Origin: a virus | Lineage: Duplodnaviria; Heunggongvirae; Uroviricota; Caudoviricetes | Virus record (IMG/VR): IMGVR_UViG_2778261163_000009 | Reading direction: 5' to 3' (one strand) | DNA length: 40,609 nt | In this document: positions 576 to 34,952 of the stretch, in pieces | How the letters are laid out: every line of letters begins with the position of its first letter | How positions within the stretch are numbered: position 1 is the first letter of the stretch | Made by a program: the position numbers and the translations under genes | Notes under the pieces: model-generated | The model's input: the letters and a program-made list of their open reading frames with translations, nothing else | What the model was told of the DNA's origin: nothing | Databases searched by the model: none

Positions 576-1289
576 ATGGACTTCAACCTGAACAAAAAAA
601 TGCCAGTTAATAGATATCTTGTGATAATAGTTTTTGTCCTTTTCATCTTAGCCTGTATGCAGTTTATTTATCTTTGCCTTCGTTCATTAAGCATTGCCCC
701 AAACTATACGGGGACTGTAAGTGACATTATAATAGCTACAACAAATATTATTTTAGCTACCTACGCCGTTCGTGCATTCAAAAACTTATTTAAAGATAAA
801 CTATCCGATAATGCCATTAGTAAAATAGATACAGCATTGATGTCTCTCGATGATTGCATAGATAGTTTTTCAAGCTTATTTTTAAATATGACACTTATTA
901 AGATTTATAAAAACACTAATAACCCCAAGGACCCTCAGTTAGTTAAACAGCTCGATGAAGCAGCAAAAAACATTGAAAAAGCAACAAGTTCAGCCTACAA
1001 GGCAAGATCTATAATTGACTCATTAACTCGTTGGAATATAAGCTTAAACACAGAAAAAGGAATAAGACTAAACCAACTTACCACTGATGTTTTTGAGTTA
1101 GGCATGCAGGCAACAAATATGTATATCGCACTAATAAATGAAATAAACCCTAACTCCCCATACAACTCTTTAACTCATAGACCATTTGATGAGTTATTTA
1201 ACGAATTTAATGAAGAAAGGACCAGAGTTGAAGACGAAAGCAATGAATTAAAAGAGTTCTCTATTCATGAAATATTTAAAATCAAATAA
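576..1289 (+). CDS. Hypothetical membrane-anchored protein (prophage cargo, AT-rich)
   Basis: 237-aa ORF with a GAGG ribosome-binding site; hydrophobic N-terminal helix (LVIIVFVLFILACMQFIYLCL) then a charged, probably helical domain; lies between attL and ogr; no family recognised. Confidence 0.6.
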   Translation: MDFNLNKKMPVNRYLVIIVFVLFILACMQFIYLCLRSLSIAPNYTGTVSDIIIATTNIILATYAVRAFKNLFKDKLSDNAISKIDTALMSLDDCIDSFSSLFLNMTLIKIYKNTNNPKDPQLVKQLDEAAKNIEKATSSAYKARSIIDSLTRWNISLNTEKGIRLNQLTTDVFELGMQATNMYIALINEINPNSPYNSLTHRPFDELFNEFNEERTRVEDESNELKEFSIHEIFKIK

Positions 1290-3258: not shown

Positions 3259-6200
3259 GCGTCGTATCCCCCCTGATCGCTGTAGTTACTCCTGGCTTTT
3301 GCCTTCAGCCTGCGTTCACGTTCATCAAGCTGGCGTGCCACCTCCCGCGCAATATCCTGCGCACTTTGTCCTGGCTGCATCTGAATGATGATCTGCGTCG
3401 GTGCCTCAATCCGGTGAACGGGCGGCACAGTGGCTGCACGACTCACCATCGCTTCGCCGCCTTTCGCGGGAAGTGCCAAAGGATGCAACGGTGGAAGCTC
3501 TGCAGGCGCGGCAGCAACGCCCATCATTCCGGCAACAACGGCAGCCAGTGCAGCTGTATTTCTCCGGCTGGTCACATTTGCCGGGCCGTTAACAATTTCC
3601 GGCCCGTTTTCACCGACGATGCCAAACTGCCCGCGCGGGATATAGCCGCCGCTGTCATACATCCCCGCAAAGCCATATCCCCATGACGGAAAACCACCCG
3701 ATGGCATCATCACTTTGCCGTCTGCATTCACCGTCGCAGGTTGCTGACGCGTCACGCGTTCCGGCAGTTTTGCCTTTGCGGCCTCTTTACTGACAATGCC
3801 GAGTTTTTCCAGCAACCAGGATACGCCGGATTTCAGGGAGTCCAGCGGATGCATGACCATATTCAGCCCTTCCGCCAGTGCCTCCCCGAATCGCCGCCCC
3901 ATTGCCGCTGCACTCTGCAGTTCGGCAGAGGTCGACTTAACGGGCGTCAGCAGATCAGTAAACCAGCCCCACAACGCCTGTACTTTGTCGCCAATCCACT
4001 GGAACACGGGCTTAAGCGGTTCGAATGCTGCACTGACGGGACCTGCCGCCGCTTTGAATCCTTCCACCACGCCACCAAGAAATGCGGTGATGGGTTGCCA
4101 GTATTTCCAGACAACCAGCGCCACGCCCGCCAGTGCAGTAACCACAAGACCTATCGGACTGAGCAGAGCACCTAACAGACCAGATACGGCATACAGGGCA
4201 ACGCGCAGCATCGCCAGTGGACCAGATGCCAGTACTCGCAGCACCGTGCCTGCGGCGGCCAGTCCACCGCGTAGTGCTGCCAGTGGATTCATAAACATCA
4301 CAGCAACCGCACGTAAACCGGATAATCCAGACCGCAAAAGTGCAACCGGCGCACCTGCTACAGTTTTCAGGACATTTCCCGTCAGTGATGCCGTGCGGCG
4401 CAAAGACGACAACGGCGCAGTAAGTAAACCTGCGGCGTTGCCCGATGAAGCAAGCCCGCGTCGCAGCAGTGCCAGTGGTGCGCCAGCCAGCCAGGACAAC
4501 GCGCTGCTGGTTCGAGTTACTGCTGCCGTAACGGAAGGTAACGTTTTGATACCCAGCACAGAGAATCCCAGACGGATCACTGCCAGCGGCCCCAGAACTG
4601 CAGCCAGCGCCACCGCTAAGGTGCCGAGGCCTACGGTAACCGCAGCCACAACAGCCGCTACTTTCATCAGTGTGCCTGTCAGTTCCGGGTTAGCTTCCAC
4701 CCAGCGGCGCAACGCCCCCGTGATGCTTTTCACCGTGTACAGAATATCCATCAGCGGCTGGCGCAGCGTTTCGCCCAGGCTGCTGAAGGTGTTCTGCGCT
4801 CCGGTTTTGACCAGCAACCACTGAGCAGAAAGTGAGTCTTTGTTGATGTCGGATTCTTTCTGCATGGAACCGAGCGCATCATTGCCCGCTGTCAGCTTTA
4901 ACTGGCGCTGCAGTTCCGGCAGGTTGTTTGCCAGTTTCGCCGCGTCATCGCCAAACTCTTTACCAAACAACATGGTCATGGCAGACAGACGCTTGTCCTG
5001 CGGCAGTGCGTTCACCTTCTCCAGCACGCGCTGGATGGTTCCCATCGCATCCTTCGTCATCTGCTTTTCAATCACTTCAGGATTGAGTTTCAGCAGATTC
5101 ATCCCTTCAAAGAAACTCTTGCTTTGCATGGTGGCAATGGACAATTCACGCACCATCGCGTTTGCTGCACTGGCTGCAACCTCTGGCGCAGCGCCCAGTG
5201 TCAGAAAGGTGGAACCCAGCGCCGCCGCTTTACGATAATCCAGACGATCAGCCACACCGCCCAGGCGTTGCATGACATCAATGATGTCTGCCCCTTTCGA
5301 CATGGCGTTATCATCCAGATAGTTCAGCGCATCACCGAGCTGTTCAATATTGCGGGTAGGGATTTTGTAGAGCTGGGCGATTTTCCCCAGACTTTCTGAC
5401 AGTTCATCCGCTGGCAGCTCAAAGGCTGTTGCCGCCTTTGCTGCCGTACTGGCGAAGGCCAGCAGGTCACGTTTCTGGTCTTCCCAGCTGTCGTCAGGGT
5501 TTGCGACGTTCATGCGTGCACCACCTTCAACCAGTGCAGCGAAATCCACCGCACCGTTTTCCATCGGCAACTGTTCGCTGGCAGCCTTGATGGCATCCTG
5601 CATTTCATAAAAACGTGCAGTGCGGTTGCCATTATCGTCACGCAGACCATTGACCTGCTTTGCCACACCTTTCATGGCATCTTCTATGCTGGTATAGCTT
5701 TTTACTGCCGCCATCACTGGCGTCCCCATTGCCAACCCTGCAGCCGTGGTAGTGGCTCCGGCTCCTGCAATACGATCGCGCACCTCCAGCGAACGGGCAT
5801 AACTGGCACGCGCCGCATTCATCCTGCGCTGAGCTTCCCCCAGTCGCTTCAGCCGCGCCTCCTGTTTCGACAGTTCCTGGTTATAACGTGATGTTTCACG
5901 GGCTAAACGGGCAGTTGCTCCCGCATCATCTTTCGCAGAAATTCCCGCCCGGTACAGTTCTGCACGCACAAGCGCCGTTTGCTTCTGCAAATATTTTTGT
6001 TGTTCTTCCAGGCGTTGGACTGCCAGCGTTTGCCGACCTAAAGCCACAAGGTGCCGTTGTGATGGTTGTTCCATCGCCTCCAGCTCAGAGCTAAGCAAAT
6101 TAGCCTTCTGTCTGGCATAGTTCAGCCTGTCGCCTAACTTCTTGTTATCGGCCTGCAGCTTGCGAAATTTTTCCAGGCTGTTACCCGCCTGATTGAGTTG

Positions 6201-8655: not shown

Positions 8656-9225
8656 TCAGGGGGATTCATTGCTCTTATTTGCCGGAAATTTTCTATAAAT
8701 GGTAGAAACGCCTACATCAAAAATCAGTGCAATACGCTGTCTTGATTCTCCGGCCTCGAGTAAACGCCCAATCTGTGCCCACTGTTTGGTGGTCAACTTA
8801 GGACGGCGTCCACCTACTCTGCCTTTGGCACGAGCTGCAGCCAGCCCTGCCCTAGTACGTTCAACTATCAGTTCGCGTTCCATTTCAGCCAGGGCCCCCA
8901 TGACATGAAAAAAGAAACGGCCCATTGGGGTGCTGGTATCAATACTGTCAGTCAGGCTTCGGAAATTCACGCCACGCTGACGCAACTCTTCTATCAGCGT
9001 AACAAGATGCCGCATACTGCGCCCCAACCTGTCTAGCTTCCAGACAACCAGCGTGTCTCCTGCCGATAGTGTCCTGAGCAGTTTTTTCAGCCCCGGTCTG
9101 TCGGACTTAGTGCCACTGATTTTATCCTCAAAAATCCGCTCACATCCCGCGCAGTTCAGTGCATTACGTTGCAAATCGGTGTTCTGGTCATTTGTTGACA
9201 CGCGTACATAGCCAATAAGTATGAT
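8656..9225 (-). CDS. Gin/Pin/Hin-family serine DNA invertase; canonical start codon position is ATA
   Basis: Translation reads (I)LIGYVRVSTNDQNTDLQRNAL... and runs collinear with Pin/Gin through the C-terminal helix-turn-helix; the ORF track begins at GTG 9201, but homology continues 8 codons upstream to an ATA preceded by an AGGGGG ribosome-binding site. Confidence 0.8.
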   Translation of the reverse strand: MILIGYVRVSTNDQNTDLQRNALNCAGCERIFEDKISGTKSDRPGLKKLLRTLSAGDTLVVWKLDRLGRSMRHLVTLIEELRQRGVNFRSLTDSIDTSTPMGRFFFHVMGALAEMERELIVERTRAGLAAARAKGRVGGRRPKLTTKQWAQIGRLLEAGESRQRIALIFDVGVSTIYRKFPANKSNESP

Positions 9226-9249
9226 TATCCCCCTGAATAAAAACCGGGG

Positions 9250-9771
9250 ATGATGCCAGTTAGCTGTTACCTCTGCATTTTCTTAAACGTTGGTTTGGGA
9301 GAAGGCTCTGCATTACCTGTTGGTGTGCCTGTTCCATGGCCTTCAGCCACACCGCCAACAGGCTGGCTGAAATGCAACGGTGCGGCTTTTTCTGCTGAAG
9401 AATACCCGGAACTGGCAAAGGCTTATCCGACAAATAAATTGCCTGATTTACGTGGTGAGTTTATTCGTGGCTGGGATGACGGGCGCGGTATTGATGCAGG
9501 ACGTGTTTTATTGAGCATTCAGACAGGGATGCTGGAAAAGCACCGTCATCCTGTTGTCGCCAACGATGGGTATGACTCAAAAGAGGTATGGGAACTGGCG
9601 GCGATCTTCAGAAGAGCATATACACAGGGCAAGGGACTGGATGGTACCAGTGCAGGCGGAACTTTGATTCCATCACCAACGCTACATACACGAGGGAGTG
9701 TCGGTAATACTGGCGGGAGTGAAACCCGTCCACGAAATATTGCATTTAACTTTATCGTGAGGGCTGCATAA
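9250..9771 (+). CDS. Alternative tail-fibre C-terminal segment (silent copy, tail-collar-like)
   Basis: Encodes GLGEGS at the crossover site, then PVGVPVPWPSATPPTGWLKCNGAAF typical of tail-fibre receptor-binding tips; opposite strand to H. Confidence 0.7.
   Translation: MMPVSCYLCIFLNVGLGEGSALPVGVPVPWPSATPPTGWLKCNGAAFSAEEYPELAKAYPTNKLPDLRGEFIRGWDDGRGIDAGRVLLSIQTGMLEKHRHPVVANDGYDSKEVWELAAIFRRAYTQGKGLDGTSAGGTLIPSPTLHTRGSVGNTGGSETRPRNIAFNFIVRAA
9278..9303. repeat. Invertase crossover site (hix/gix-like 26 bp), left end of invertible segment
   Basis: TTTTCTTAAACG TT GGTTTGGGAGAA; the right half-site is the reverse complement of the left half-site of 11144..11169. Confidence 0.7.
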
Positions 9772-10379
9772 TGGATAACGCCGTATTAAATAGCGAGCTT
9801 ATTGCCACGAAGGCGGGGAATATTACAGTCTATAACTATGATGGTAAAACTCGGGAATATATTTCTACTTCAAATGAATATCTTGCCATTGGTGTCGGTA
9901 TCCCTGCATATTCCTGTCTGGATGAACCTGGTATACATAAGGCGGGTTATGCTATCTGCCGTTCGATGGATTTAAACTCATGGGAATATGTGCCAGACCA
10001 TCGCGGTGAAATCGTCTATAACACCGAAACGGGAGACGCCAAAGAAATCACAGCTCCGGGTGATTATCCTGAAAATACAACCACTATCGCCCCGTTAACG
10101 CCATTCGATAAATGGGATGGTAAGAAATGGGTGACCGATACTGAGGCACATCATAGCGCCGCAGTAGACGCGGCAGAAGCACAGCGTCAGTCACTGATTG
10201 ATACTGCAATGGCTTCCATCAGTCTGATTCAACTGAAATTGCAGGCCGGGCGGAAGCTGACGCAGGCAGAAACCACCCGACTTAACGCTGTGCTGGATTA
10301 CATTGACGCGGTGACGGCAACAGATACCAGCACCGCGCCGGATGTTATCTGGCCTGAACTGCCGGAGACTGCACAATAA
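9771..10379 (+). CDS. Tail fibre assembly chaperone for the alternative fibre tip
   Basis: 202 aa, start overlaps the preceding stop; a hairpin CCCTGCTG-TGTGT-CAGCAGGG follows at 10401..10424. Confidence 0.7.
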   Translation: MDNAVLNSELIATKAGNITVYNYDGKTREYISTSNEYLAIGVGIPAYSCLDEPGIHKAGYAICRSMDLNSWEYVPDHRGEIVYNTETGDAKEITAPGDYPENTTTIAPLTPFDKWDGKKWVTDTEAHHSAAVDAAEAQRQSLIDTAMASISLIQLKLQAGRKLTQAETTRLNAVLDYIDAVTATDTSTAPDVIWPELPETAQ

Positions 10380-10515
10380 ACTCACCATCAATATATAAAT
10401 CCCCCTGCTGTGTGTCAGCAGGGCATTCTTTCCATATTAATGATGGATGGAATCTTCCTTCAGGATTAATTTCCGTTATCTCTTCTACTTTATTTTCTTC
10501 AATTCTTGCCCACAT
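10345..10515 (-). CDS. Small ORF downstream of H (possible short tail-fibre assembly fragment)
   Basis: 57 codons, GGTGAGG ribosome-binding site 6 nt before ATG; overlaps the 3' end of the opposing assembly gene by 35 nt. Confidence 0.35.
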   Translation of the reverse strand: MWARIEENKVEEITEINPEGRFHPSLIWKECPADTQQGDLYIDGEFIVQSPAVQAR

Positions 10516-10522
10516 ATGAACC

Positions 10523-12205
10523 TCACCAGTAAATATAAACTGCGCCATCTGCTCCGGCACCCGACTGACCCGTTGATGAATTAGGACATAATCCAGCACC
10601 GCCACCTCCAGGCCCAACTGCTGATACCGCTTTTCCGTTAGCTGTATCTCTGAATGAACCTGCTCCTCCGGGGCCACCACCAGAACCACCATTACCAGCT
10701 CCCGATGCGGCAGAAGCAATGGAACCTGGAGAACCTGGCCCAAGCGATGTATTAATTGTTCCCCCGACACCAACTGCGCCTAACCCTCCGGAAGGCTGGC
10801 CTCCGCTATAGCCTCCGGAAGCTGACATGTAAGTCCCGAAACTGCTCGAGCCACCATTTTTACCGTTTACAGAAATACCAGACACAGGCGCACCACCGGC
10901 ACCAACCGTAATCGAAACACTGTTTATACCAGTTAAATCTACCAGCCCCTCAGCAACTCCGCCCCCACCACCTCCTCCGCCACATGTAACGGCTGAAGCG
11001 GTTGTTGAACCTATCCCTCCTGACGCACCGCCACCAATAACTTTGACGTAACATTTTCTTCCTTTGCGCAACTCTTCAGGAACAGTCCAGCTTGTTACTC
11101 CAGCCGTTGTGAAGGCAACCAGATTTCTGAACCCAAATGAACCTTCTCCCAAACCAAGGTATGTGAGAAGACCAGCTACATCCTTTCCACTCAAATTAGT
11201 CAGCGTATTGTCCAGCGGTTGTTTACCTGCCAGCGCATTAAGCATTGTCGTGGCAAAGTTCGGATCATTCCCCAGTGCCGCCGCCAGTTCGTTCAGTGTA
11301 TCCAGTGCCGCAGGTGCAGAACCCACCATTCCTGCAATCGCCGATTTCACAAAAGCCGTAGTGGCAATCTGTGTATTATTGACCGACTGCGCCGCCGTAG
11401 GGGCTGTTGGCGTTCCGGTGAGTGCCGGACTCGACAGCGGCGCTTTCAGTGCCAGCGCATTGTTAATGGTGGTACTGAATTTCGGATCATTGTTAATGGC
11501 TACGGCTATTTCTTTCAGCGTGTCCAGCGTGGCTGGCGCACCATTAATAAGAGCCGTCAGTGCCGCCTGAACAAATGCGGTGGTCGCAAGCTGCGTGGTA
11601 TTATTCCCCGCCGCTGGCGTTGGCGCTTTGGGGGTTCCGGTAAACGTTGGACTTTCTTTGGGTGCATACTGTGAATGCGGGTCCGGCGCGGCAAGATGTT
11701 TTGCCATCAGGTCATCCACGTACACCTTCAGCTCCAGAGCCTTGTCATCCACATACTTGCGGGTTGCCAGCACTACAGCAGGGTCGATTTTCAGGGTGAT
11801 ATTGTCCGTGCTGCTGGTAATCAGCACCATGCGCACGGTCTGGGTACGCCCGCTGCCTTCAGCCAGTTGCGGCTTATAGCTTTCCGGGCAGTTGCCCACG
11901 GCAATCAATGTCCCGGACTCATCAAACAGGCCCACTTCACGTATCCACCAACCGCCCTCGTTTTCAGGGATCACCTGTTCGGCAATAATCTGGCTGCTGT
12001 TCTGCGGGTCGATATAGAGCATATTCAGCGCAGCCCGGCGTTTCTCATTTACCAATGCTGTCTGCTTTGCGTCCGGCGTTGGCAATGTTCCGCCGCCATC
12101 GCCGACCGCCATATGGGTAATTTTTAAAGGCACACCGAGCGCGGCGGCGCTGGCAAGTTTCGCCGCGCCAATATCCGTCAGCAGGGTATAAAATTTTGTG
12201 CTCAT
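10523..12205 (-). CDS. H: Tail fibre protein H (constant N-terminus plus invertible glycine-rich C-terminal tip)
   Basis: 560 aa, P2 gpH-like N-terminus; crossover site encodes LTYLGLGEG about residue 345; C-terminal 200 aa is Gly-rich. Confidence 0.85.
   Translation of the reverse strand: MSTKFYTLLTDIGAAKLASAAALGVPLKITHMAVGDGGGTLPTPDAKQTALVNEKRRAALNMLYIDPQNSSQIIAEQVIPENEGGWWIREVGLFDESGTLIAVGNCPESYKPQLAEGSGRTQTVRMVLITSSTDNITLKIDPAVVLATRKYVDDKALELKVYVDDLMAKHLAAPDPHSQYAPKESPTFTGTPKAPTPAAGNNTTQLATTAFVQAALTALINGAPATLDTLKEIAVAINNDPKFSTTINNALALKAPLSSPALTGTPTAPTAAQSVNNTQIATTAFVKSAIAGMVGSAPAALDTLNELAAALGNDPNFATTMLNALAGKQPLDNTLTNLSGKDVAGLLTYLGLGEGSFGFRNLVAFTTAGVTSWTVPEELRKGRKCYVKVIGGGASGGIGSTTASAVTCGGGGGGGGVAEGLVDLTGINSVSITVGAGGAPVSGISVNGKNGGSSSFGTYMSASGGYSGGQPSGGLGAVGVGGTINTSLGPGSPGSIASAASGAGNGGSGGGPGGAGSFRDTANGKAVSAVGPGGGGAGLCPNSSTGQSGAGADGAVYIYW
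11144..11169. repeat. Invertase crossover site (hix/gix-like 26 bp) inside H, right end of invertible segment
   Basis: TTCTCCCAAACC AA GGTATGTGAGAA; left half-site TTCTCCCAAACC is the reverse complement of the right half-site of 9278..9303; resembles hixL TTCTTGAAAACCAAGGTTTTTGATAA. Confidence 0.7.
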
Positions 12206-23456: not shown

Positions 23457-24155
23457 TTATTTGTTTCTTCTTTGTTCACGCCTTGTCTTGGCTTCGATAA
23501 GGCGTTGAGGTTCAGTGTAAAGCCGTTCTAAAAAAAGATAGGTAAAATCTTCAAGATCCTCAGCAGCAGCTTTATCCAAAATACCTTCATGCGCTCCATC
23601 ATTTCCGTCATCTTTAACGCATTCAGCTAGTTCCCTTAAAGCTTCAGGCAGTAGATGATTATCAAATAACCACTCCATTCTTAACCCTAGGCTTCTCCTT
23701 ATTTTTTGCGCAGGCCCTTGCTCCCCATCAGGAAGAAGTCCTTTTGTGGCATAATCAAGGCAAAGCCTAAACATGGTTGCTGCTGCATTATAACAACCTA
23801 TAGCCAAACATTTCGCCCCTTCCTCATATGCACTATTGATATGCTCAGGTAAGAACTCTGGTGGCTCCTCTACTGCTAAGTCTGCCGGTGATATAGGTCT
23901 AACAACCTCTGCAACTTCCTTTAAGCCGAATATTCCACTTTCCCAATTATAGTCATCTAAAGTTTTATTTTTCGTTAAAGGTCTGCAAAGAAAAATTGTC
24001 GTTTTATGACACTCTCGGCAAACACAATAGACCTCGTACTCGTATGTTTTACCCCCGCCCAATGCATTGTAAACCCTAGTGCAATTCAGCCCATTAACAT
24101 CAAACGCTATTTTTTGTGATCCACATCGTGGACAGTCATCCACTAACATAACCAT
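23457..24155 (-). CDS. Hypothetical zinc-ribbon protein (cargo between Q and cos)
   Basis: 232 aa, GGGAGGAG ribosome-binding site; N-terminal CPRCG...CVCRECH cysteine cluster; C-terminal acidic/His region (DDGNDGAHEG); AT-rich; no P2 counterpart at this position. Confidence 0.6.
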   Translation of the reverse strand: MVMLVDDCPRCGSQKIAFDVNGLNCTRVYNALGGGKTYEYEVYCVCRECHKTTIFLCRPLTKNKTLDDYNWESGIFGLKEVAEVVRPISPADLAVEEPPEFLPEHINSAYEEGAKCLAIGCYNAAATMFRLCLDYATKGLLPDGEQGPAQKIRRSLGLRMEWLFDNHLLPEALRELAECVKDDGNDGAHEGILDKAAAEDLEDFTYLFLERLYTEPQRLIEAKTRREQRRNK

Positions 24156-24265
24156 GTCAATTACTCCTCCCTATGAAAAAAATGAGTTGAAAAATTGAAT
24201 ATTCACGACTTAAAAAGCTAGCCTATTTAACACCATAATTTCATTAATTCAACCATGAGCGCGCG

Positions 24266-24284
24266 CTCGTATCCCCGCCACGCC
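24266..24284. other. cos site (19-nt cohesive end) of the prophage
   Basis: Reverse complement GGCGTGGCGGGGATACGAG resembles the P2/186 cohesive end (GGCG(A/T)GGCGGGGAAAGCA-) and lies where cos is expected next to Q. Confidence 0.6.
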
Positions 24285-24324
24285 TGCCCGCTTTATGTAG
24301 TGGTTTTCATGCGCCTGCATGACA

Positions 24325-24353
24325 TAAGCAAAAGCCCGCCACTCCTGGCGGGC
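24325..24353 (-). terminator. Rho-independent terminator after the 203-aa cargo gene
   Basis: GCCCGCCA-CTCC-TGGCGGGC stem followed by TTTTGCTT on the minus strand. Confidence 0.6.
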
Positions 24354-24444
24354 CTCAGCTAAAACGATCCTCAAACGATCATGCGGATTCATGCGGCATA
24401 GACATGCACAATCTCCAAAGCGGGCATCGAGACTTTTTGGAAAC

Positions 24445-25056
24445 CTACGTAACCACAGTTAATGTGTGCATCCTGTTTCGAATTGCATCACACGTCTCAT
24501 CAAAAAGCTTGGTGATGGTTGTACGGTTCAACTCCGCCTCTTTCCAATAATTTTGCCCGTCAAATTCTGGATCGCTATGCTGAAACGATATTGACTCTGA
24601 AAGGCATTCCTTCCGGAAACGGTCCAAGATTATATAAACCTCTGGTGAGATGAACGGTTTGTTAGATTCAACACTTGTAACAAAAGTGTTAAATGCTTCA
24701 AAAAAAACTTTCAATCTTCTAAATTTTCTCTCTTCAAATGGTTCGTTGGGGTCAACATGATCCAGCGCAGGCCTCAGCTTAAGCACGCTTTCTCTGGTTT
24801 CAAACATCGAATTCCAAATGAGACTATATGCTGATAACTCCTTATCAAAATACGCTTTCGTTACATAAACAGAATTGTCTAACTTAGCCTTTATTCTTTC
24901 ATTAGTTGCACTCAGTTGTGATTGAAATTCAGCAATATCTTTGTTTAGCCGCGACTTATATCTTTCTAAATAAACTTTCCCGATCCAAACAAATATGCCA
25001 GATGCAACAAAAGACACCCCACCCAACGAAGCCAGAACTTTAAAGACTAAATCCAT
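24445..25056 (-). CDS. Hypothetical membrane-anchored protein (cargo between cos and the SOS module)
   Basis: 203 aa; AGGTGGGGG ribosome-binding site; TATAAT-like -10 box about 30 bp upstream; N-terminal transmembrane helix (LVFKVLASLGGVSFVASGIFVWI); AT-rich. Confidence 0.6.
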   Translation of the reverse strand: MDLVFKVLASLGGVSFVASGIFVWIGKVYLERYKSRLNKDIAEFQSQLSATNERIKAKLDNSVYVTKAYFDKELSAYSLIWNSMFETRESVLKLRPALDHVDPNEPFEERKFRRLKVFFEAFNTFVTSVESNKPFISPEVYIILDRFRKECLSESISFQHSDPEFDGQNYWKEAELNRTTITKLFDETCDAIRNRMHTLTVVT

Positions 25057-25104
25057 TGCGCCCCCACCTGCAAAAATAGTATTCCATTATAAGCTAATAC
25101 ATTT

Positions 25105-25365
25105 TTAATCAAACAGGAGATAATTCGCGTCAACCTCATCACTTCTCTGCTCTACCCTAGTGACTTCCATCAAAAACCCCAGGCCGTCATATAGCGAAAC
25201 GGGGAATTCCAGCTCAAGCCAGAAGCAGTCTTCATAGATGCGGCCCAACCAAAAACCTCCGCCACACTCCTTTGGGCGTTGAAAGAAGACCCAATCGCCA
25301 AGGGTAAACCGTTCCAGCACCTGGCCCCGATAAATAATCTGGTGATTACTGTCTTTTTTATCCAT
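25105..25365 (-). CDS. Hypothetical small protein (cargo)
   Basis: The ORF track starts at a TTG (25416); ATG at 25365 (MDKKDSNHQIIY...) with a GAGG ribosome-binding site is more plausible, giving 86 aa; no family recognised. Confidence 0.45.
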   Translation of the reverse strand: MDKKDSNHQIIYRGQVLERFTLGDWVFFQRPKECGGGFWLGRIYEDCFWLELEFPVSLYDGLGFLMEVTRVEQRSDEVDANYLLFD

Positions 25366-26024: not shown

Positions 26025-28439
26025 TTAATACAGGTTTCGCCACTTATCATCTTCCTGCAAACGCTGGTTCCGATAGAAGATACGCAGGCCTGCTCCTGAC
26101 GGAATACTGCCGCCGCGAAGGAGTAAATCGACCTCTTTCTCGCTGCCATTAAATCCTCTGGACTTCAGTTCATAGACGAGCTGCTGTCGCTGATGGTCTG
26201 TAATTCGCTGTTTGTAGTCTTTACGCCGTTTCGGTTTCACCAGGCGTAACCTTGCAGCCAGTTCCCGGCGCTCTTTTTTGCTCATACTGTGCAGGTAACC
26301 GTGCAACTCCTTGTCATCCATGCGGGTAATGTCCGTCCTGGTATCCCCATCAGCTGATTTGTCTTTCCCTTGTTGGTTCAAATTTTCAGCAAGGGGACAG
26401 TTATTGCCACGAGTCCAAGGGGCGCAAGCGCCCTGGTCGGCTGCCGCCTCCTGAACATCAACGGCCTTACGAACCATTTTCCACTTCACGGCATGAGTGC
26501 AGATCTTGCCCTCTGCAATAGGTGACCAGATGCCATAAATACGAATGCCGTGATCGCCATAGGCGGTCGGCTCTTCGTTGATTTCATAAGCGGTTCTGAT
26601 GAGGTGATATTTGCGGGGAACCAGTACGCCGCCCTGCTTCATGATGTAGGTGGCAAAACAACCAGCATCAGCAGCAGCCAGGATGGCATCAAGGCGTGGG
26701 TTATCCAGTACCGGCGCACCTGCTTTTTTGTCCCCCTGTTGCCTTGCCGCCTGACCAGCCAGCAATCGCAGTTCACGGTAAGCCTGACGCCCCGGAATGC
26801 CAAAGAAGCGGAATTGCTGAACACGATGCAGAGACGCCCAGGCATTAACGTATTCAGCATTATCACGCAGGGATTTCCCCGTTTCCTTGCTGATCTCGCC
26901 AGCCAGACCACGCCCGTCAATGTTCTTACTGATGTATTTCGCGATGTAGCTTGTTGGCGTTCCTTTGCGCGGGTTAATCAACTCAGACTTAAAGCGCGGC
27001 CCAGTGTTATTGCCCAGCTCCTCGCGGTCTTCACGGATGGCAAACTTACGCAGTAATGCAGTGATGGCACGGCGGTCTTTTTTGCGCATGAAACACAACA
27101 GGTGCCAGTGAACTGTGCCGTCATGATGCGGCTCAGCCACCCGCACGCCATACCAGCGCAACCCGGCTTTGTGCATCGCCTTACGAAATGCAGCAAACAT
27201 GCCGACCAGATAATCGCTGCTTTGTCTTACCGTCGCGTTTGTCCAGGTCGGGTTTGGTCTGCCGTTATTGAGCGTGGAATGGAAACGTGACGGACAGGTG
27301 ATGGTGTAGAAAACGGCGCAGTCACCGCGCATTTCCGCGATAAGCTCCAGACCTTTAACACAGGCCATCATCTCATTGCGGCGATGCGCCGGGTTGCTGC
27401 TGCTGGCGTTTACCACATCCTCCATGTCCAGCGTGTCGCCGTCTTCGTTCACCAGTTCATGAGAACGGAAAAACTCCAGCGACTTACGGCGCTGCTCACG
27501 TTTATGCATCACGGCTTCATAGCTGACATAGGGAGATGCTTTTTTGCTGACCAGGCAGACAGCACGCAACTGCTCTTCCCGCCATTCGCAACGCATCTTC
27601 CATAATTTCCGATACCACCAGTCGGCGCACAACATACGCGCCAGCGAACCCGGAATGAGTTCATAGGGCACGGGTTTACGGCGGTTTCTTTTCCGACGGA
27701 GTTGCTCAAACGCAGGAGGGATTACATCCAGACGCAGGGTTTCCGCTGCCACCTTTTCCCATGTCTTGCGGATTTCTTCTGGCTTAACGTCATCGGTGGC
27801 ATACAAATCACCACAAGCTGCATCAAGGCACATGCTCATATGCGCGGCAACAAGGGTAGACAGGCGCTTCACCTGATCCTGACTCATTTCAGGCAGGATC
27901 AGCAGGCCGTCCAGCCCTTCATGGCTTGCCATAAAGCGAAAAGAAGTGGATAGCTGACTCTCGCGTACATGCTCCAGTCGTTCCAGACATGGCTTAATCG
28001 TCTCACGCAAATAGCGGGAATAAGCCTTTGGCCTGCCCAGGCTGCTGAAGTATTCAATACGTTGCATCAGCGGCTTGCTGATATGGGAAGGCTGGGCGTT
28101 GACGTCCGCCAGAATGACCATATCCGGATTAAAACGCTGCTGCTCATGCGCCAGCTTTGCCCGACTAATGAGCTTATCCTGCTCGATTTCGCGCTGGACA
28201 GGATCACGGGATTCATTAAAGAAATAACGCTCCCAGACCTGATCACTCAGCGCCTCACGGCGCAGCTGTTCCTGCTCGTTATCGGCAGCGTACAGAGTGA
28301 TCAGGTTTGAAAGCGCAGAAACCGGCGCAACTTCCGCCGGGTCCAGATAAGGGTTAATGGCCTTTTTCGGGCTGCTCCATGAGAATGCTGCTGCGACCTC
28401 GTTAAAGCCGCTGCAGTTGTTCATATCAGCATGGCTCAT
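26025..28439 (-). CDS. A: Replication initiation protein A (rolling-circle nickase)
   Basis: 804 aa, P2/186 gpA-like. Confidence 0.85.
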
Positions 28440-29293
28440 GCACGCACTCCGTACACGGCAGAACTATCCACGCCACGCGAAGGATCAAATCCCACCCAGC
28501 AGCGCGGCCCGGAAACAGCGATGATTTCTGTTGCTGATTTACACTCGCCAGCTGCCACACCGATGCTGCGTTTTACCTTGATATAGTGGTGAGTAAAATT
28601 GCGATACAGCGAACGAATCAGGGATGTGTCACTGTTAGAAACAATGACCGGATGTCCTTCAGATGATCGATGTTCAAGAACGGATGCCAGGTGATACTGG
28701 TCATCTTCAGTGAAACCATCAGTGTGATAGCCGGAAAACGTACCGTCATAAGGCGGATCGCAATACACCACATCCCCCGCCTTCAACATCGCCAGCGTTT
28801 CATCAAAGCTGGCGCAGATAAACGTTGCCCGCTGGGCTTTTTCTGCAAATGCGCGAATTTCTTTTTCAGGGAAATACGGATTTTTATAATTACCGTAGGG
28901 AATATTGAAATGCCCGCTCTTGTTATAGCGACATAAACCACGGTAACCGTGACGATTGAGATACAGGAAATATACCGCTTTCATGAAATCAGTAATTTCA
29001 GTTGAGTAATTAAACTCCTGCCTTATGTTGTAATAAGCTACCTCCCTGTTTGCGATCTCAAATAAAACTCTGGCGCGAGATATAAACGATTCACAATCAG
29101 CGGCAACCTTTTTATAGAGGTTGATTAAATCAGGATTAATATCCGCAACCAGATAGCTTGGATAATCCGTCTCCATCATCACCGCACAGGAACCCGCGAA
29201 AGGTTCAACCAGTCGCGGGCCAGCTGGAAGGTGTTTTTTCAGTTCTGGCATAATGGCGGTTTTATTTCCCGCCCATTTCAGGATGGTGCTCAT
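28436..29293 (-). CDS. dam: DNA adenine methyltransferase (Dam family)
   Basis: [12 protein letters not shown]-terminus, DPPY catalytic motif ([12 protein letters not shown]); start chosen at the ATG with a GGAGGTG ribosome-binding site. Confidence 0.8.
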
Positions 29294-30458: not shown

Positions 30459-30652
30459 TTGTTCCCCCGTTTTTTCGTAGATAGTTCTGCCAGCAATTCA
30501 TCTTGTGAACGGCACGGATGCCAGCGTTTACCATCCTCACCCATGATCCAGCCGTGACCGTAGTGCATTGCCGGGCTTTGTTTAACCAGCAGCGATGCAA
30601 ATGATGGTTCTTTCGTAAGCATAAGCACCTCACAGCAAACCGAATGAAGCAC
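30422..30652 (-). CDS. Hypothetical small early protein (position of 186 fil-like genes)
   Basis: 76-aa ORF overlapping both neighbours; true start uncertain. Confidence 0.35.
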   Translation of the reverse strand: MLHSVCCEVLMLTKEPSFASLLVKQSPAMHYGHGWIMGEDGKRWHPCRSQDELLAELSTKKRGNKWLLKALRRLFH

Positions 30653-31139
30653 CGAGGCCAGTCACGGTATCAACTGCACTCGCCATCGCAGGGTTAGCCT
30701 GTAAACGGGCCTGCAGTGAAACAGCAGCCAGCGCCATCAGTCGTGTTACAGAGTTAATGCTGCTGATAGCATCACGACGACCTGCACTGGTTTTTACATC
30801 GCCAGATACCGCACCTGCAGCAACACGCCCGATCTCTGCGGTTGCACTCATGACGTAATGCGGCAGTTTCTCTTTTGCTACCTCATTAATCGGTACACAT
30901 GGCAGGCAGTGAATCTGTGCCAGAAAACCATCTATCAGCGTTGAATCTTCAGTCAGATCGGTAAGCAGCCAGATTTCTGGCGCATTGAGCTGATGTGGTT
31001 GATCTGGGTTGAGTTTGTTTCGCAGAGTCTGGACATTCATTCCTGCACGTTCTGCCAGCTTCGCCATATTGTGACGAAGTGCAAAAGCTCTACAGGCTTC
31101 ATCAAAATGCTGGTGTTTGGAAATCTTATAATCAAACAT
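30630..31139 (-). CDS. cII: Lysogeny establishment activator CII (186-type)
   Basis: 169 aa, near-identical in length and sequence pattern to phage 186 CII (MFD..SKH.H.DEACRAFA.RHNMAKLAE...). Confidence 0.85.
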   Translation of the reverse strand: MFDYKISKHQHFDEACRAFALRHNMAKLAERAGMNVQTLRNKLNPDQPHQLNAPEIWLLTDLTEDSTLIDGFLAQIHCLPCVPINEVAKEKLPHYVMSATAEIGRVAAGAVSGDVKTSAGRRDAISSINSVTRLMALAAVSLQARLQANPAMASAVDTVTGLGASFGLL

Positions 31140-31171
31140 GCTACCCCCTTAGAAAGTTCTCATAATTGAAC

Positions 31172-31414
31172 TCACTTACCAACAATGACGCGGAAGTTGG
31201 AATGACCGAGGGATTCACGGACCTGATCGGTTTTGTACATTAAATAACGCAGACTTACGCGGCCTTTGTTTTTTTCTTTCTTGACCATGTATTTAGCAAG
31301 CTGACCATGGTGAATTTTTTGATACACGGAGCCGCGGGAGATACCTTCCCATTCCGCGAACTCTGCAGGCGTAGCCATCTCTTTTGGTACACGAATTGAA
31401 ATATCAGTGCTCAT
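31172..31414 (-). CDS. apl: Excisionase / lytic-promoter repressor Apl (Cox-like)
   Basis: 80-aa helix-turn-helix protein, first gene of the lytic operon opposite cI. Confidence 0.75.
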   Translation of the reverse strand: MSTDISIRVPKEMATPAEFAEWEGISRGSVYQKIHHGQLAKYMVKKEKNKGRVSLRYLMYKTDQVRESLGHSNFRVIVGK

Positions 31415-31467
31415 AGTGCAGTATCTCCCGATTAAGGTTTGGTTTACGTCGTTTTATCTCGTTTTAC

Positions 31468-31522
31468 TTGATTCAATATTTGATACATCGAGATACTACG
31501 ATCCAATATTTGATACGTCAAC
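31468..31522. promoter_or_regulatory. Lysis/lysogeny switch region with direct operator-like repeats
   Basis: GAT(T/C)CAATATTTGATAC occurs at 31470..31486 and 31500..31516, 30 bp apart, in the 119-bp apl-cI intergenic region; CGTTTTA is also duplicated at 31449..31466. Confidence 0.55.
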
Positions 31523-31533
31523 AGGATTAAAAA

Positions 31534-32166
31534 ATGATACAGGTAAAGGCTGGAGAGAATACAGGGGGAAGAGAGGCTATCCATAGACTAATGGCAGCCT
31601 ATGATTTCAAGTCCAGACAGCAACTTTGCGATCACTTAGGCGCATCAAAAAGCACCATGGCAAACAGATACTTAAGAGATAGTTTTCCTGCAGAGTGGGT
31701 GATTCAGTGCGCCTTGGAAACAGGAGTTTCTTTACTGTGGCTAACCACCGGACAGGGAGAGCCAGGTCCAAACATTAAACCTAAAAAAAATATCAATTCC
31801 GTGAACTCCAGCAAGGTTGTACCTCTTTCTGAACTAGTATCTCCTGAAATTGACAAGGCGACTCTCAACGGTGGTTTATTGGTCGATGCTGGAAAAGCAA
31901 TCATTGATAGCAGCATACTCCCCTCAGACTCAAGCAACCTACTGCTGGTGACTACTTCTGGTGATTCTTATTTAATAGATCGCAACCAAACACCACCAGT
32001 AAATGGTATGTGGTTAGTCGATATCGACGGGATAAAAAGCATTGTTAAATTGACTCGGCTCCCGGGAAACAAATTAGTAGTGCATCAGGATGATTCATCG
32101 TTTGAGTGCGGTCTGGATGACATTGAGGTAGTAGGCCGCGCACTGAAAATCATTAAGAGCCTTTGA
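31534..32166 (+). CDS. cI: Immunity repressor CI (186-type)
   Basis: 210 aa; N-terminal helix-turn-helix and C-terminal region resemble 186 CI (..CALETG..L.WL.TG.GE... LPG.KL.V). Confidence 0.8.
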   Translation: MIQVKAGENTGGREAIHRLMAAYDFKSRQQLCDHLGASKSTMANRYLRDSFPAEWVIQCALETGVSLLWLTTGQGEPGPNIKPKKNINSVNSSKVVPLSELVSPEIDKATLNGGLLVDAGKAIIDSSILPSDSSNLLLVTTSGDSYLIDRNQTPPVNGMWLVDIDGIKSIVKLTRLPGNKLVVHQDDSSFECGLDDIEVVGRALKIIKSL

Positions 32167-32167
32167 T

Positions 32168-33181
32168 ATGACCATCAGAAAACAGCCGAACGGAAAATGG
32201 TTGTGTGAGTGCTATCCCAATGGACGCAATGGCAAGCGCGTGCGTAAGCAATTTGCTACGAAAGGCGAAGCCATTGCGTTTGAAAGCTTCACAATGGAAG
32301 AAGTGAATAAAAAACCGTGGTTGGGTGAAAAGGATGATCGGCGACGCCTATCAGAATTAATTGAGCTTTGGTATTCCCTGTATGGTCAAACACTCGCAGA
32401 CCCCAAGCGCCTCATGGCGAAACTTAGAATTATCTGTAATGGTCTAGGCGATCCCATCGCCTCAGAACTGACAGCTGGTGACTTTACAAAATACCGCGAA
32501 GCACGGTTAAAAGGTGAAATACGAAATGAAGATGGCACACTTATGTCGCCCGTAAAGCCCCGTACGGTAAACCTTGAACAGCGCAATCTATCATCTGTGT
32601 TCGGTACATTAAAAAAACTAGGACACTGGTCAGCACCAAACCCGCTGGCAGGACTTCCGACCTTCAAAATTGCCGAAGGTGAGCTGGCTTTTCTTTCCAC
32701 GGACGAAATCAAGCGCCTGTTGGCGGCATGTGCTGAATCTCAAAACCCTAGCTTACTAATGATTGCAAAAATATGCCTAGCTACTGGCGCACGGTGGAGT
32801 GAAGCCGAAAATCTGCAGGGCCACCAAATATCGAAATACCGAATTACTTATACAAAAACAAAAGGCAAGAAAAACAGAACAGTACCCATATCACAGGAGC
32901 TGTATGACGAACTCCCAAAGAACAGAGGGAAGTTATTCTCACCATGTAGAAAAGCCTTTGAACGAGCAGTAAAACGGGCAGGTATAGATCTACCGGATGG
33001 CCAATGCACCCACGTGCTGCGACATACGTTTGCTAGCCACTTTATGATGAATGGCGGGAACATACTTGTGCTAAGGGATATTTTGGGACATTCGGATATC
33101 AAGATGACCATGGTTTACTCACATTTCTCACCAGATCATCTTGAAGATGCCGTTACTAAGAACCCATTAAACTTGATATAA
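32168..33181 (+). CDS. int: Tyrosine integrase (P2/186 type)
   Basis: 337 aa; C-terminal catalytic region HVLRHTFAS...LGHSDIKMTMVYSHF with the R-H-R-Y tetrad; directly follows cI. Confidence 0.9.
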   Translation: MTIRKQPNGKWLCECYPNGRNGKRVRKQFATKGEAIAFESFTMEEVNKKPWLGEKDDRRRLSELIELWYSLYGQTLADPKRLMAKLRIICNGLGDPIASELTAGDFTKYREARLKGEIRNEDGTLMSPVKPRTVNLEQRNLSSVFGTLKKLGHWSAPNPLAGLPTFKIAEGELAFLSTDEIKRLLAACAESQNPSLLMIAKICLATGARWSEAENLQGHQISKYRITYTKTKGKKNRTVPISQELYDELPKNRGKLFSPCRKAFERAVKRAGIDLPDGQCTHVLRHTFASHFMMNGGNILVLRDILGHSDIKMTMVYSHFSPDHLEDAVTKNPLNLI

Positions 33182-33194
33182 AACAGCCAAAATT

Positions 33195-34952
33195 CTATTT
33201 CATCAAGTAATCCAATTCATCCTTCATAGGTATAACTTGCTCATAAAGTCTATGGTAGGATTTTCCAATTGCCCCCCTAAATTGAATAAGTTTAGGGGAA
33301 AAGCTACCGATATTAATAATATGTTCTTGCGCTATACCAGGATATGGATCGATAAAAATAATCTCTGTCATACCTAACTGATAAGCTTTTTTAGCACAAA
33401 GTTCACAAGGGCTAGCTGTAGTATATAGTTTCCCTCCATTAATACCGACCCCACCATATTTGGCCAATTGCAAAAAAGCATTCTCCTCTGCGTGCAATGC
33501 ACGGGTATGCACTTGATTCCCTTTCTTTTCATCATCAAGGCTGTTGTGAATATCTTTAAAACAATATGGCAAATTAAGTCCTTTAAAAACAGTAGAACTT
33601 GAATCACTCGCCCTTATTTTTATTAAATTTTCTTTAACTTTACTCCTAAATTTTGTATTACTTCGTTCGTACAGGCTATATGTTCCCTCATCAAAATCAT
33701 GCAATAACCCATCAAATGACCTCATAGAACAAGGAACTTGACCTTTTGCTACATCGTTCCAACCAACTGACTTGATAGAGTTATCATTATCTGTCACAAC
33801 CGCCCCTACTTGCCTAGATATACATCCAGAATTTAGTTTTACAGTATATGCAACTTGCATAACCCTTTCCATGGCGGTAGGAGATATTAATCCAGGGTGT
33901 TGCATTAATGATACATACCACGCAATTTGTGCTTTGAGAAAGTTATTATTATCAAATTCTTTTTTAGGGTTAAAAAAATGTATATCTGAAATTTCAATGC
34001 ATTTTTTTACATTAGGATTAGTAAGATGATTATACTCGCCATCTCCTTTACCAGATTCTTCATCATTAATTTTTTTTATCTGTTCCTCTGAGAACTTATG
34101 TAATTTCTTTAAATATCTGGTTCGATGTTCATCTGGTGCATTTATAGAAACCAGATGGAATGCAGCATATCTATCTTTGAAGAATTTAGCTTCATACGGG
34201 TTACGTATCGCATCAATGACTATATACGCTTTATTATTCTTTACTTTTCTAATTATTTTAATAACACGATTAATTGTTTCAGGTAAATGAAAAACAGCCT
34301 TTGGAATAAAGTCTTGATTTTCATAATCTACATCAACCTTCCCTATTCTTCTAATTGACTTTCCTGCTGACTGATATAGCTCAATATATAAACCTGGCTC
34401 TAGTTCATTTAATTCCCTTTTAAAATCCCGTGTAAATTTTCGAGTAAGAGTTAATATCCTAATAAAGGTATCTTTCCCCCTGCCTTTAAAGTCAATCTCA
34501 TCATCATGATTAAGAAGATTTTTTATCACCTTAAGATATTTTATCTTCAACAAACTTTTAGCGAACACACCATTAACAACCAGTTTCTTAGCTGCCTTAA
34601 AGGAAATCGAATTTTCTTTTTTATCGGGGATTTTACTTGCAGAAAACTGAATGAATTTAGCTAAGGCCGATGGAGATAAAAGGAGCAAATATATTGAAAT
34701 GAGATCACTGACCTTTATCGAATAGAAGTTCTTCCAATGAGTCTCTGCAAAATTTTTTACTATTTCATAACGCCGCAAATCCAATCCTTTATAATACTCA
34801 GCCAAGACGTTACTATCTGGAAAAGATATTTCTTTTTGTTCTAAAATATTTGCTGCAGTAGTACATCCTGAGCCAGTTCTCCCAGTTAAACCAATAAGAA
34901 TAAATTGACTATTTTCTAAAAAAAGCTCACTAATAAATTTGTGTTCTCTCAT
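33195..34952 (-). CDS. P-loop NTPase/kinase-like plus zinc-dependent cytidine/deoxycytidylate deaminase fusion (AvcD / dCTP-deaminase-like defence protein)
   Basis: 585 aa; N-terminal Walker-A-like ILIGLTGRTGSGCTT; C-terminal deaminase signature HTRALHAEENA ... ASPCELCAKK (H-A-E and P-C-x-x-C zinc ligands); AT-rich; sits between int and attR. Confidence 0.6.
   Translation of the reverse strand: MREHKFISELFLENSQFILIGLTGRTGSGCTTAANILEQKEISFPDSNVLAEYYKGLDLRRYEIVKNFAETHWKNFYSIKVSDLISIYLLLLSPSALAKFIQFSASKIPDKKENSISFKAAKKLVVNGVFAKSLLKIKYLKVIKNLLNHDDEIDFKGRGKDTFIRILTLTRKFTRDFKRELNELEPGLYIELYQSAGKSIRRIGKVDVDYENQDFIPKAVFHLPETINRVIKIIRKVKNNKAYIVIDAIRNPYEAKFFKDRYAAFHLVSINAPDEHRTRYLKKLHKFSEEQIKKINDEESGKGDGEYNHLTNPNVKKCIEISDIHFFNPKKEFDNNNFLKAQIAWYVSLMQHPGLISPTAMERVMQVAYTVKLNSGCISRQVGAVVTDNDNSIKSVGWNDVAKGQVPCSMRSFDGLLHDFDEGTYSLYERSNTKFRSKVKENLIKIRASDSSSTVFKGLNLPYCFKDIHNSLDDEKKGNQVHTRALHAEENAFLQLAKYGGVGINGGKLYTTASPCELCAKKAYQLGMTEIIFIDPYPGIAQEHIINIGSFSPKLIQFRGAIGKSYHRLYEQVIPMKDELDYLMK

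Follow-up and report, generated by a model that had tools for sequence, protein, structure and literature searches.

An ATA codon at the start position of a Gin/Pin-family DNA invertase gene in a P2-like prophage

An invertase locus in a P2-like prophage

The stretch of DNA analyzed here, which we call the window, is 40,609 nucleotides in length. The ssrA gene for tmRNA occupies positions 40-402 and is followed by a complete P2-like prophage. The prophage genes lie in the order ogr, D, U, tape measure, E/E', tube, sheath, invertase, invertible tail-fiber segment, baseplate, lysis, head, terminase/portal, replication, immunity and integrase, as read from the RefSeq annotation of a near-identical region in Escherichia coli CEA212U. 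The closest named records are Escherichia phage 500465-1, Cartapus and Klebsiella prophage records, with ~97.5% identity over the invertase region. The host phage is a P2-like prophage of the Peduoviridae, close to Wadgaonvirus 500465-1 and integrated next to ssrA.

Two other regions of the window are of note. Between ssrA and ogr lies a 237-aa open reading frame (576-1289, plus strand) that has no Pfam or PADLOC match and is annotated as hypothetical in CEA212U. After the portal gene, positions 23457-25365 (minus strand) encode a DUF4145 protein with a weak PADLOC match to PD-T7-4 (E = 9e-7), together with two hypothetical proteins. These genes are possibly anti-phage cargo carried by the P2-like prophage.

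The region singled out in an earlier note on this DNA (8656-9303) spans the proximal crossover site and the invertase gene together with its leader. The components of the inversion system are as follows, where labels such as L161 denote individual prophage loci.

8656-9222, minus strand: DNA invertase gene (Gin/Pin/Cin/Hin family), 188 codons plus stop, 567 nt, counted from ATA.
9078-9126, minus strand: putative Fis-dependent recombinational enhancer region, within the 5' part of the gene as in gin and hin, and placed by analogy with hin.
9278-9303, minus strand: proximal 26-bp crossover site TTCTCCCAAACC-AA-CGTTTAAGAAAA, with outer half 9278-9289, core 9290-9291 and inner half 9292-9303.
9290-11157: invertible segment of ~1.87 kb, inverted in L161 (no real substitutions), L001/L076, L158 and L164.
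9292-10379, plus strand: silent alternative cassette, consisting of a Collar-domain fiber C-terminus (to 9771) and a 202-aa tail-fiber assembly protein (9771-10379); Pfam Collar and Caudo_TAP.
10523-12205, minus strand: tail-fiber gene in its present orientation, 560 aa, with a constant N-terminus and a glycine-rich C-terminal cassette; Pfam Phage_tail_fib and Gly_rich_2.
11144-11169, plus strand: distal 26-bp crossover site TTCTCCCAAACC-AA-GGTATGTGAGAA, within the tail-fiber gene, with core 11156-11157.

Both crossover sites are intact. They are inverted relative to each other, have a 12-2-12 organization, and share an identical AA core and the same inner half-site. The proximal site coincides with the inverted repeat I1 and with the inversion breakpoint in sister prophages. 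In CEA212U and L158, the cassette that is silent in the window is fused to the fiber gene, and the result is a 509-aa fiber followed by the 202-aa assembly protein (Tfa).

The cassettes differ in their content. In the window, the glycine-rich fiber end (PF21722) within 10345-12205 (minus strand) is followed by a 58-aa open reading frame without a Pfam match, and no Caudo_TAP protein is found there. Relatives have a third cassette type that encodes a 500-aa fiber and a 147-aa Tfa.

The window gene encodes a typical Gin/Pin-family serine DNA invertase that is otherwise intact. The Pfam Resolvase domain (PF00239) is matched with E = 2e-53, and HTH_7 (PF02796) is matched at residues 138-181 with E = 3e-15. 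Residues 2-184 align with Mu Gin (PDB 3UJ3/4M6F) without gaps and in the same numbering, with E values of ~1e-92 to 2e-92, and the protein is ~80% identical to Mu Gin (PDB 3UJ3). Tyr5, Arg7 and the nucleophilic Ser9 are all present, in the sequence YVRVS. The first two are the equivalents of γδ resolvase Tyr6 and Arg8, and in serine recombinases this Arg belongs to the active site.

Residues expected to contact Fis and the enhancer are also kept. In Hin, these contacts involve the basic helix-B residues K47, R48 and K51 and the helix-1 residues Q151, R154 and L155 (PMC3798978). The window protein has K46, K47, R50, Q150, R153 and L154, each numbered one lower than its Hin counterpart. The catalytic domain, the HTH domain, the Fis/enhancer residues, the paired 26-bp sites and the inversion seen among near-identical prophages together place the system with Gin, Hin, Cin and Pin.

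The enhancer itself is less distinct. A scan of the invertase gene for Fis motifs found only loose matches, at gene positions 97 and 131. Their spacing differs from the 48 bp expected, and the Mu gene gave comparably loose matches. The hin enhancer lies ~100 bp away from a hix site (PMC3798978). A tblastn search of the window detected no second invertase.

The start region of the invertase gene

Read on the minus strand, the start region is AGGGGG ATA ATC ATA CTT ATT GGC TAT GTA CGC GTG TCA ACA AAT GAC. The second of the two ATA codons is at the initiator position. Translation from it gives I-LIGYVRVSTNDQNTDLQRNAL..., and the reading frame closes with TGA (8658-8656, minus strand). The following elements are relevant to initiation.

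9199-9201, minus strand: GTG (Val8), the first canonical in-frame start and the choice of automatic gene callers, giving a 181-aa product.
9220-9222, minus strand: ATA at the initiator position; ancestrally ATG, by a G>A transition.
9226-9228, minus strand: second in-frame ATA, two codons 5' of the initiator ATA; ATG in the commonest allele (gATGATCATG).
9229-9234, minus strand: Shine-Dalgarno sequence AGGGGG, with a 6-nt spacer to ATA; its position is kept in relatives.
9250-9258, minus strand: conserved TGGCATCAT 9-mer, ~27 nt 5' of the start; TGGCATSAT in 52 of 53 distinct upstream sequences, including that of Mu gin.

The earlier note, made from the sequence alone, had claimed that the codon at the Met position is ATA, that a well-spaced AGGGGG precedes it, and that no in-frame ATG lies upstream. 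Each of these observations was reproduced. The alignment with Gin begins at residue 2, which places ATA at 9222-9220 on the minus strand. The AGGGGG at 9234-9229 is the best-placed Shine-Dalgarno sequence in the region, with six pairs, including one G-U, and the 6-nt spacer. The upstream in-frame stop is a TAA at 9285-9283, within the crossover site, and none of the 20 codons from this TAA to the initiator ATA is ATG, GTG, TTG or CTG.

The upstream ATA directly abuts the Shine-Dalgarno sequence and probably never serves as the main start. An ATC (9225-9223, minus strand) separates the two ATA codons. This near-cognate codon at -1, and the ATT at codon 3, could add to initiation. Because the GTG at Val8 is the first canonical start, the program-made list of open reading frames gives the gene as 181 aa.

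Farther upstream, the TGGCATCAT 9-mer is possibly the extended -10 element of the invertase promoter. The intergenic DNA around it has otherwise diverged. A consensus promoter scan did not call the 9-mer.

Translational coupling to, or reinitiation after, an upstream open reading frame was considered and rejected. Among upstream open reading frames of 40 aa or longer, none terminates at the start. The only candidate is a 3-codon mini-ORF, ATG-CAG-AGG-TAA, and the out-of-frame TAA just 5' of the ATA has no ATG ahead of it. If the TGGCATCAT 9-mer is the -10 element, then the mini-ORF and the out-of-frame TAA would not be transcribed.

Folding of 70 nt of upstream sequence predicts a hairpin, CATCATCCCC / GGGGGATGAT, that would sequester the Shine-Dalgarno sequence. 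The 5' arm of this hairpin coincides with the putative -10 element, so the hairpin may be absent from the mRNA. The corresponding inverted repeat at 9224-9253 (minus strand), formed by CATCATCCCC and GGGGGATRAT, would hide the Shine-Dalgarno sequence if transcribed. Polymorphisms in the two arms are linked in the haplotypes seen, such that a 5' T occurs with a 3' G and a 5' C with a 3' A. A terminator-like hairpin at 9261-9242 was set aside as weak, and the number of such matches is at chance level.

Carriers of the ATA allele

Gene callers that disallow ATA shorten the gene to 181 aa, and we therefore used the 181-aa product as a query to find carriers of the ATA allele. A lookup of this truncated product in an assembly index returned 53 blocks, from which 24 contigs were taken as loci L158-L165. 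The haplotype gataatcATA is present in all eight of these representative loci, which correspond to at least 24 independent contigs in NCBI, Logan and ENA assemblies. E. coli CEA212U has the identical gataatcATA haplotype, and its RefSeq coding sequence (WP_096953861.1) starts at the ATA and has the same bounds. Other genomes with the allele include GCA_053191345.1 and GCA_964053765.1. The base call, for which the earlier note had sought confirmation, is upheld by this shared haplotype in CEA212U and the eight further loci.

Around the invertase gene, divergence within the ATA lineage is only 0-0.15%, and the intact reading frame therefore cannot prove purifying selection. Over longer distances the carriers are less uniform. 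The window and CEA212U (L076) prophages are 99.4-99.96% identical from ssrA to ~30.4 kb. Farther on, within window positions 30460-33200, the immunity and integrase modules have only 92% and 86% identity to L076, and the outer flanks differ. Given this divergence in the immunity and integrase modules among carriers, the ATA allele sits in mosaic prophages.

Start codon alleles among relatives

All 75 close relatives that a protein similarity search drew from IMG/VR have ATG as the start codon, and the start in close relatives reads gatgatcATG or gataatcATG. When IMG/VR was scanned for an exact pattern with ATR at the start codon, all 68 matches had ATG, and the corresponding ATA-only scan of IMG/VR gave no matches. 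A JGI metagenome scan likewise found no ATA start. The invertase start region is carried by ~1,050 of 5,426 complete E. coli genomes, and an ATA-specific 30-mer matches two of the 5,426 (CEA212U and strain 1283). GTG starts occur in Mu gin and in two distant relatives (L145/L155).

The nearest ATG allele (L006) differs from the window gene at 6 of 567 nucleotides. Four of these differences are G>A, including those responsible for the start codon change and for E146K. The gatA variant upstream is also found with an intact ATG start (L005-L008, L009/L156), and is therefore older than the start codon mutation. On the sequences compared, the ATA is a rare allele, derived by a G>A transition, and not a conserved feature. 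The idea that it is a conserved non-canonical start was rejected, given ATG in every one of the 75 relatives, ATA in only two of the 5,426 E. coli genomes, and its absence from the IMG/VR and JGI scans.

The E146K substitution (codon 146, 8783-8785, minus strand) is specific to the ATA lineage. Residue 146 is at the N-terminus of helix 1 of the DNA-binding domain, on the side facing Fis, and is equivalent to Hin His147, a surface position that crosslinks to Fis. The position is variable across the family, in which E, S, A, G, R and K are found.

In E. coli strain 1283 (L004, NZ_CP023371.1, locus 825), this codon underwent the ATG>ATA change independently, in a gatgatc background. Its allele keeps an in-frame ATG two codons upstream, and the RefSeq coding sequence nonetheless begins at the ATA.

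The common allele, gatGATCatg, has a Dam site (GATC) directly before the start. The window haplotype, gatAATCata, has lost this site (9223-9226, minus strand). The prophage encodes its own DNA adenine methylase (28436-29293).

Both orientations occur in the ATA lineage

The earlier note had proposed that, if the invertase were inactivated, the tail fiber would be locked in its current orientation. Prophages with the ATA allele occur in both orientations. One (L159, SRR3988192) is 100% identical to the window across 8,546 nt and has the same orientation. Another (L161, SRR12424735) is identical to the window outside the segment and has the segment inverted, where the sole apparent mismatches correspond to the differing outer half-sites. 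The segment is also inverted relative to the window in CEA212U, L158 and L164.

A second cassette type, encoding the 500-aa fiber and the 147-aa Tfa, accompanies the same ATA invertase in other prophages. It is fused to the fiber gene in L162/L163 and is adjacent to the invertase gene in L165. Since both orientations are found among prophages with the ATA allele, and in two cassette backgrounds, the proposal of a locked orientation is contradicted at the level of sequence comparison.

The inversion breakpoints fall in the 19-nt part that the crossover sites share. The L163 contig begins exactly at the crossover core, and those of L164 and L165 end no more than ~56 nt from a site, as expected for populations of mixed orientation. 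Judging from these sequence comparisons, the lineage has undergone two or more inversions since it acquired the ATA. We infer that the agent of these inversions was the prophage's own enzyme.

One genome with the ATA allele (L160, GCA_964053765.1) has a different arrangement. At L160 positions 3860-3930, corresponding to window position 9304, the crossover site next to the invertase gene is linked to sequence from the middle of a lambdoid rusA gene and not to the segment. Intact rusA has 10 nt (AAACCAACGT) in common with the crossover site. Invertase-mediated recombination with a secondary site was rejected as the origin of this junction, because the breakpoint is 8 nt off the core and is not the clean product of a serine recombinase. 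The junction could be a rearrangement or a misassembly.

Interpretation of the ATA codon

The explanation that we prefer, with moderate confidence, is that the window carries a hypomorphic allele with leaky initiation at ATA, such that switching is slowed rather than abolished. In the lineage of the window, a G>A transition changed the initiator ATG to ATA. Translation would still begin at this codon, 6 nt past a strong AGGGGG Shine-Dalgarno sequence, with fMet-tRNA decoding the ATA at a few percent of the normal rate. The lowered synthesis of invertase would then result in slow switching of the 1.87-kb segment between the two 26-bp sites, and with it a slow exchange of the C-terminal cassette of the tail fiber.

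Invertases act catalytically and at low abundance. This property, together with the GTG starts that occur in the family, is the reason that we prefer a hypomorphic allele to the alternatives below. The use of ATA as the actual start codon, and the level of expression, are what we would expect from initiation in other genes. AUA is one of four near-cognate codons that are measurably used by E. coli, with activities relative to AUG of 1-2% (sfGFP) or 0.02-3% (NanoLuc) (bioRxiv 10.1101/063800). An AUG>AUA mutant of T4 rIIB has ~15% residual translation, and a phage murein hydrolase with an AUA start has 7.5% (PMC5499595). The published values for AUA thus vary with context, from ~0.02% to 15% of AUG. 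The earlier note had left a choice between weak or non-canonical initiation and an inactive invertase with a locked fiber. Weak initiation is the better supported of the two, given the Shine-Dalgarno sequence and the intact gene and sites.

A possible, though less probable, explanation is that ATA is effectively a null allele, and that the gene is a young pseudogene. Orientations would then be flipped in trans by other invertases of the Gin/Pin family, such as e14 Pin or those of P2-like, Mu-like and P1-like prophages. Gin, Cin, Pin and Hin cross-complement one another, and potential donors are common: the invertase coding sequence is matched at one or more places in 4,647 of the 5,426 E. coli genomes (median two among these), and CEA212U has two such chromosomal places. 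The activity of AUA can be as low as 0.02% of that of AUG (bioRxiv 10.1101/063800), and the ATA lineage is too young for the missing decay to be informative. Several observations oppose a null allele. The Shine-Dalgarno sequence and its spacing are optimal for residual initiation, AUA supported 7.5-15% in the two phage genes (PMC5499595), the rest of the gene is undamaged, and both orientations are found repeatedly, in two cassette backgrounds.

It is improbable, in our judgment, that the allele is an adaptive slow-switch variant, in which synthesis is cut 10- to 1000-fold so that orientation becomes nearly heritable and is still reversible. If this were true, the ATA of strain 1283 and the GTG of Mu gin would represent recurrent tuning of the inversion rate through the strength of the start codon. 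A related proposal, that ATA is a weak start selected to set a very low switching rate in the manner of infC AUU or Mu gin GTG, seems to us slightly more doubtful still. The family does tolerate non-AUG starts (Mu gin and L145/L155), the ATA arose a second time in strain 1283, and dozens of assemblies retain the allele, which is also kept in mosaic prophages whose immunity modules differ. However, ATA is limited to one narrow lineage and one singleton, with none among the 75 close relatives or in the IMG/VR and JGI scans, and the strain 1283 allele retains an upstream in-frame ATG. This is the distribution of a recent mutation, either neutral or mildly deleterious, that hitch-hikes in a clone, and not that of a conserved feature.

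We regard as very unlikely the possibility that translation starts at the Val8 GTG to yield an active invertase of 181 aa that is truncated at its N-terminus. This GTG is the first canonical in-frame start, and Prodigal-type callers report the 181-aa product in many assemblies, but no sequence resembling a Shine-Dalgarno element lies 5' of it (cttattggctatgtacgcGTG). The earlier note was correct that such a start would remove seven residues and retain the catalytic Ser. That description is incomplete, in that residues 1-7 include strand β-1, Tyr5 and Arg7, according to the alignment with the Gin structure, and activity of the product is unlikely. Finally, an error of sequencing or assembly, which has nothing in its favor except the rarity of ATA, was rejected with near certainty by the same base and haplotype in independent NCBI, Logan and ENA assemblies.

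The window has a rare start codon mutant of a well-known system, which is already in RefSeq with an ATA start, and it reveals no new mechanism. The allele matters for annotation, in that gene callers shorten the gene to 181 aa from Val8 whereas RefSeq starts it at the ATA, and this difference bears on whether prophage invertases are scored as intact or defective. As a natural allele, it could serve to gauge the amount of invertase that tail-fiber switching requires. Its practical importance is small.

Comparison with known systems

The closest counterparts are the P2-like loci of 500465-1/Wadgaonvirus, Cartapus, pro483 and the prophages of EPEC E2348/69, in which the genes follow the same order and the invertase region is 97-98% identical in nucleotide sequence. 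These relatives start with ATG, whereas the window allele has ATA and E146K. Phase variation by inversion in E. coli P2-like prophages has been shown experimentally, in EPEC E2348/69 (PMC4272514).

The arrangement in the window is of the classical type represented by Mu G, P1 C and e14 P. As with Mu Gin and its G segment (NC_000929), the invertase gene is just outside the segment and beside one 26-bp site, alternative fiber C-termini and assembly genes are in opposite orientations, and the TGGCATSAT motif lies upstream of the gene. In contrast to Mu, the phage is P2-like, and the invertase gene is between the tail-fiber and sheath genes. Mu gix has TC as its crossover core, where the sites here have AA. 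Moreover, Mu gin starts with GTG, whereas the start position is ATA here and ATG in close relatives.

The system resembles Hin/hix/Fis of Salmonella in its subclass of serine recombinase, in the residues that contact Fis and the enhancer, and in a 12-2-12 site with an AA core. However, hin is inside its own segment and controls a promoter, whereas the invertase gene here is outside the segment and coding cassettes are swapped; the enhancer here is putative.

With regard to initiation, the T4 rIIB AUA mutant is similar in that a transition at the third position of the codon left a leaky start preceded by a good Shine-Dalgarno sequence. The AUU start of infC is different, because it is conserved and autoregulatory, whereas the ATA of the window is a rare mutation specific to one lineage.
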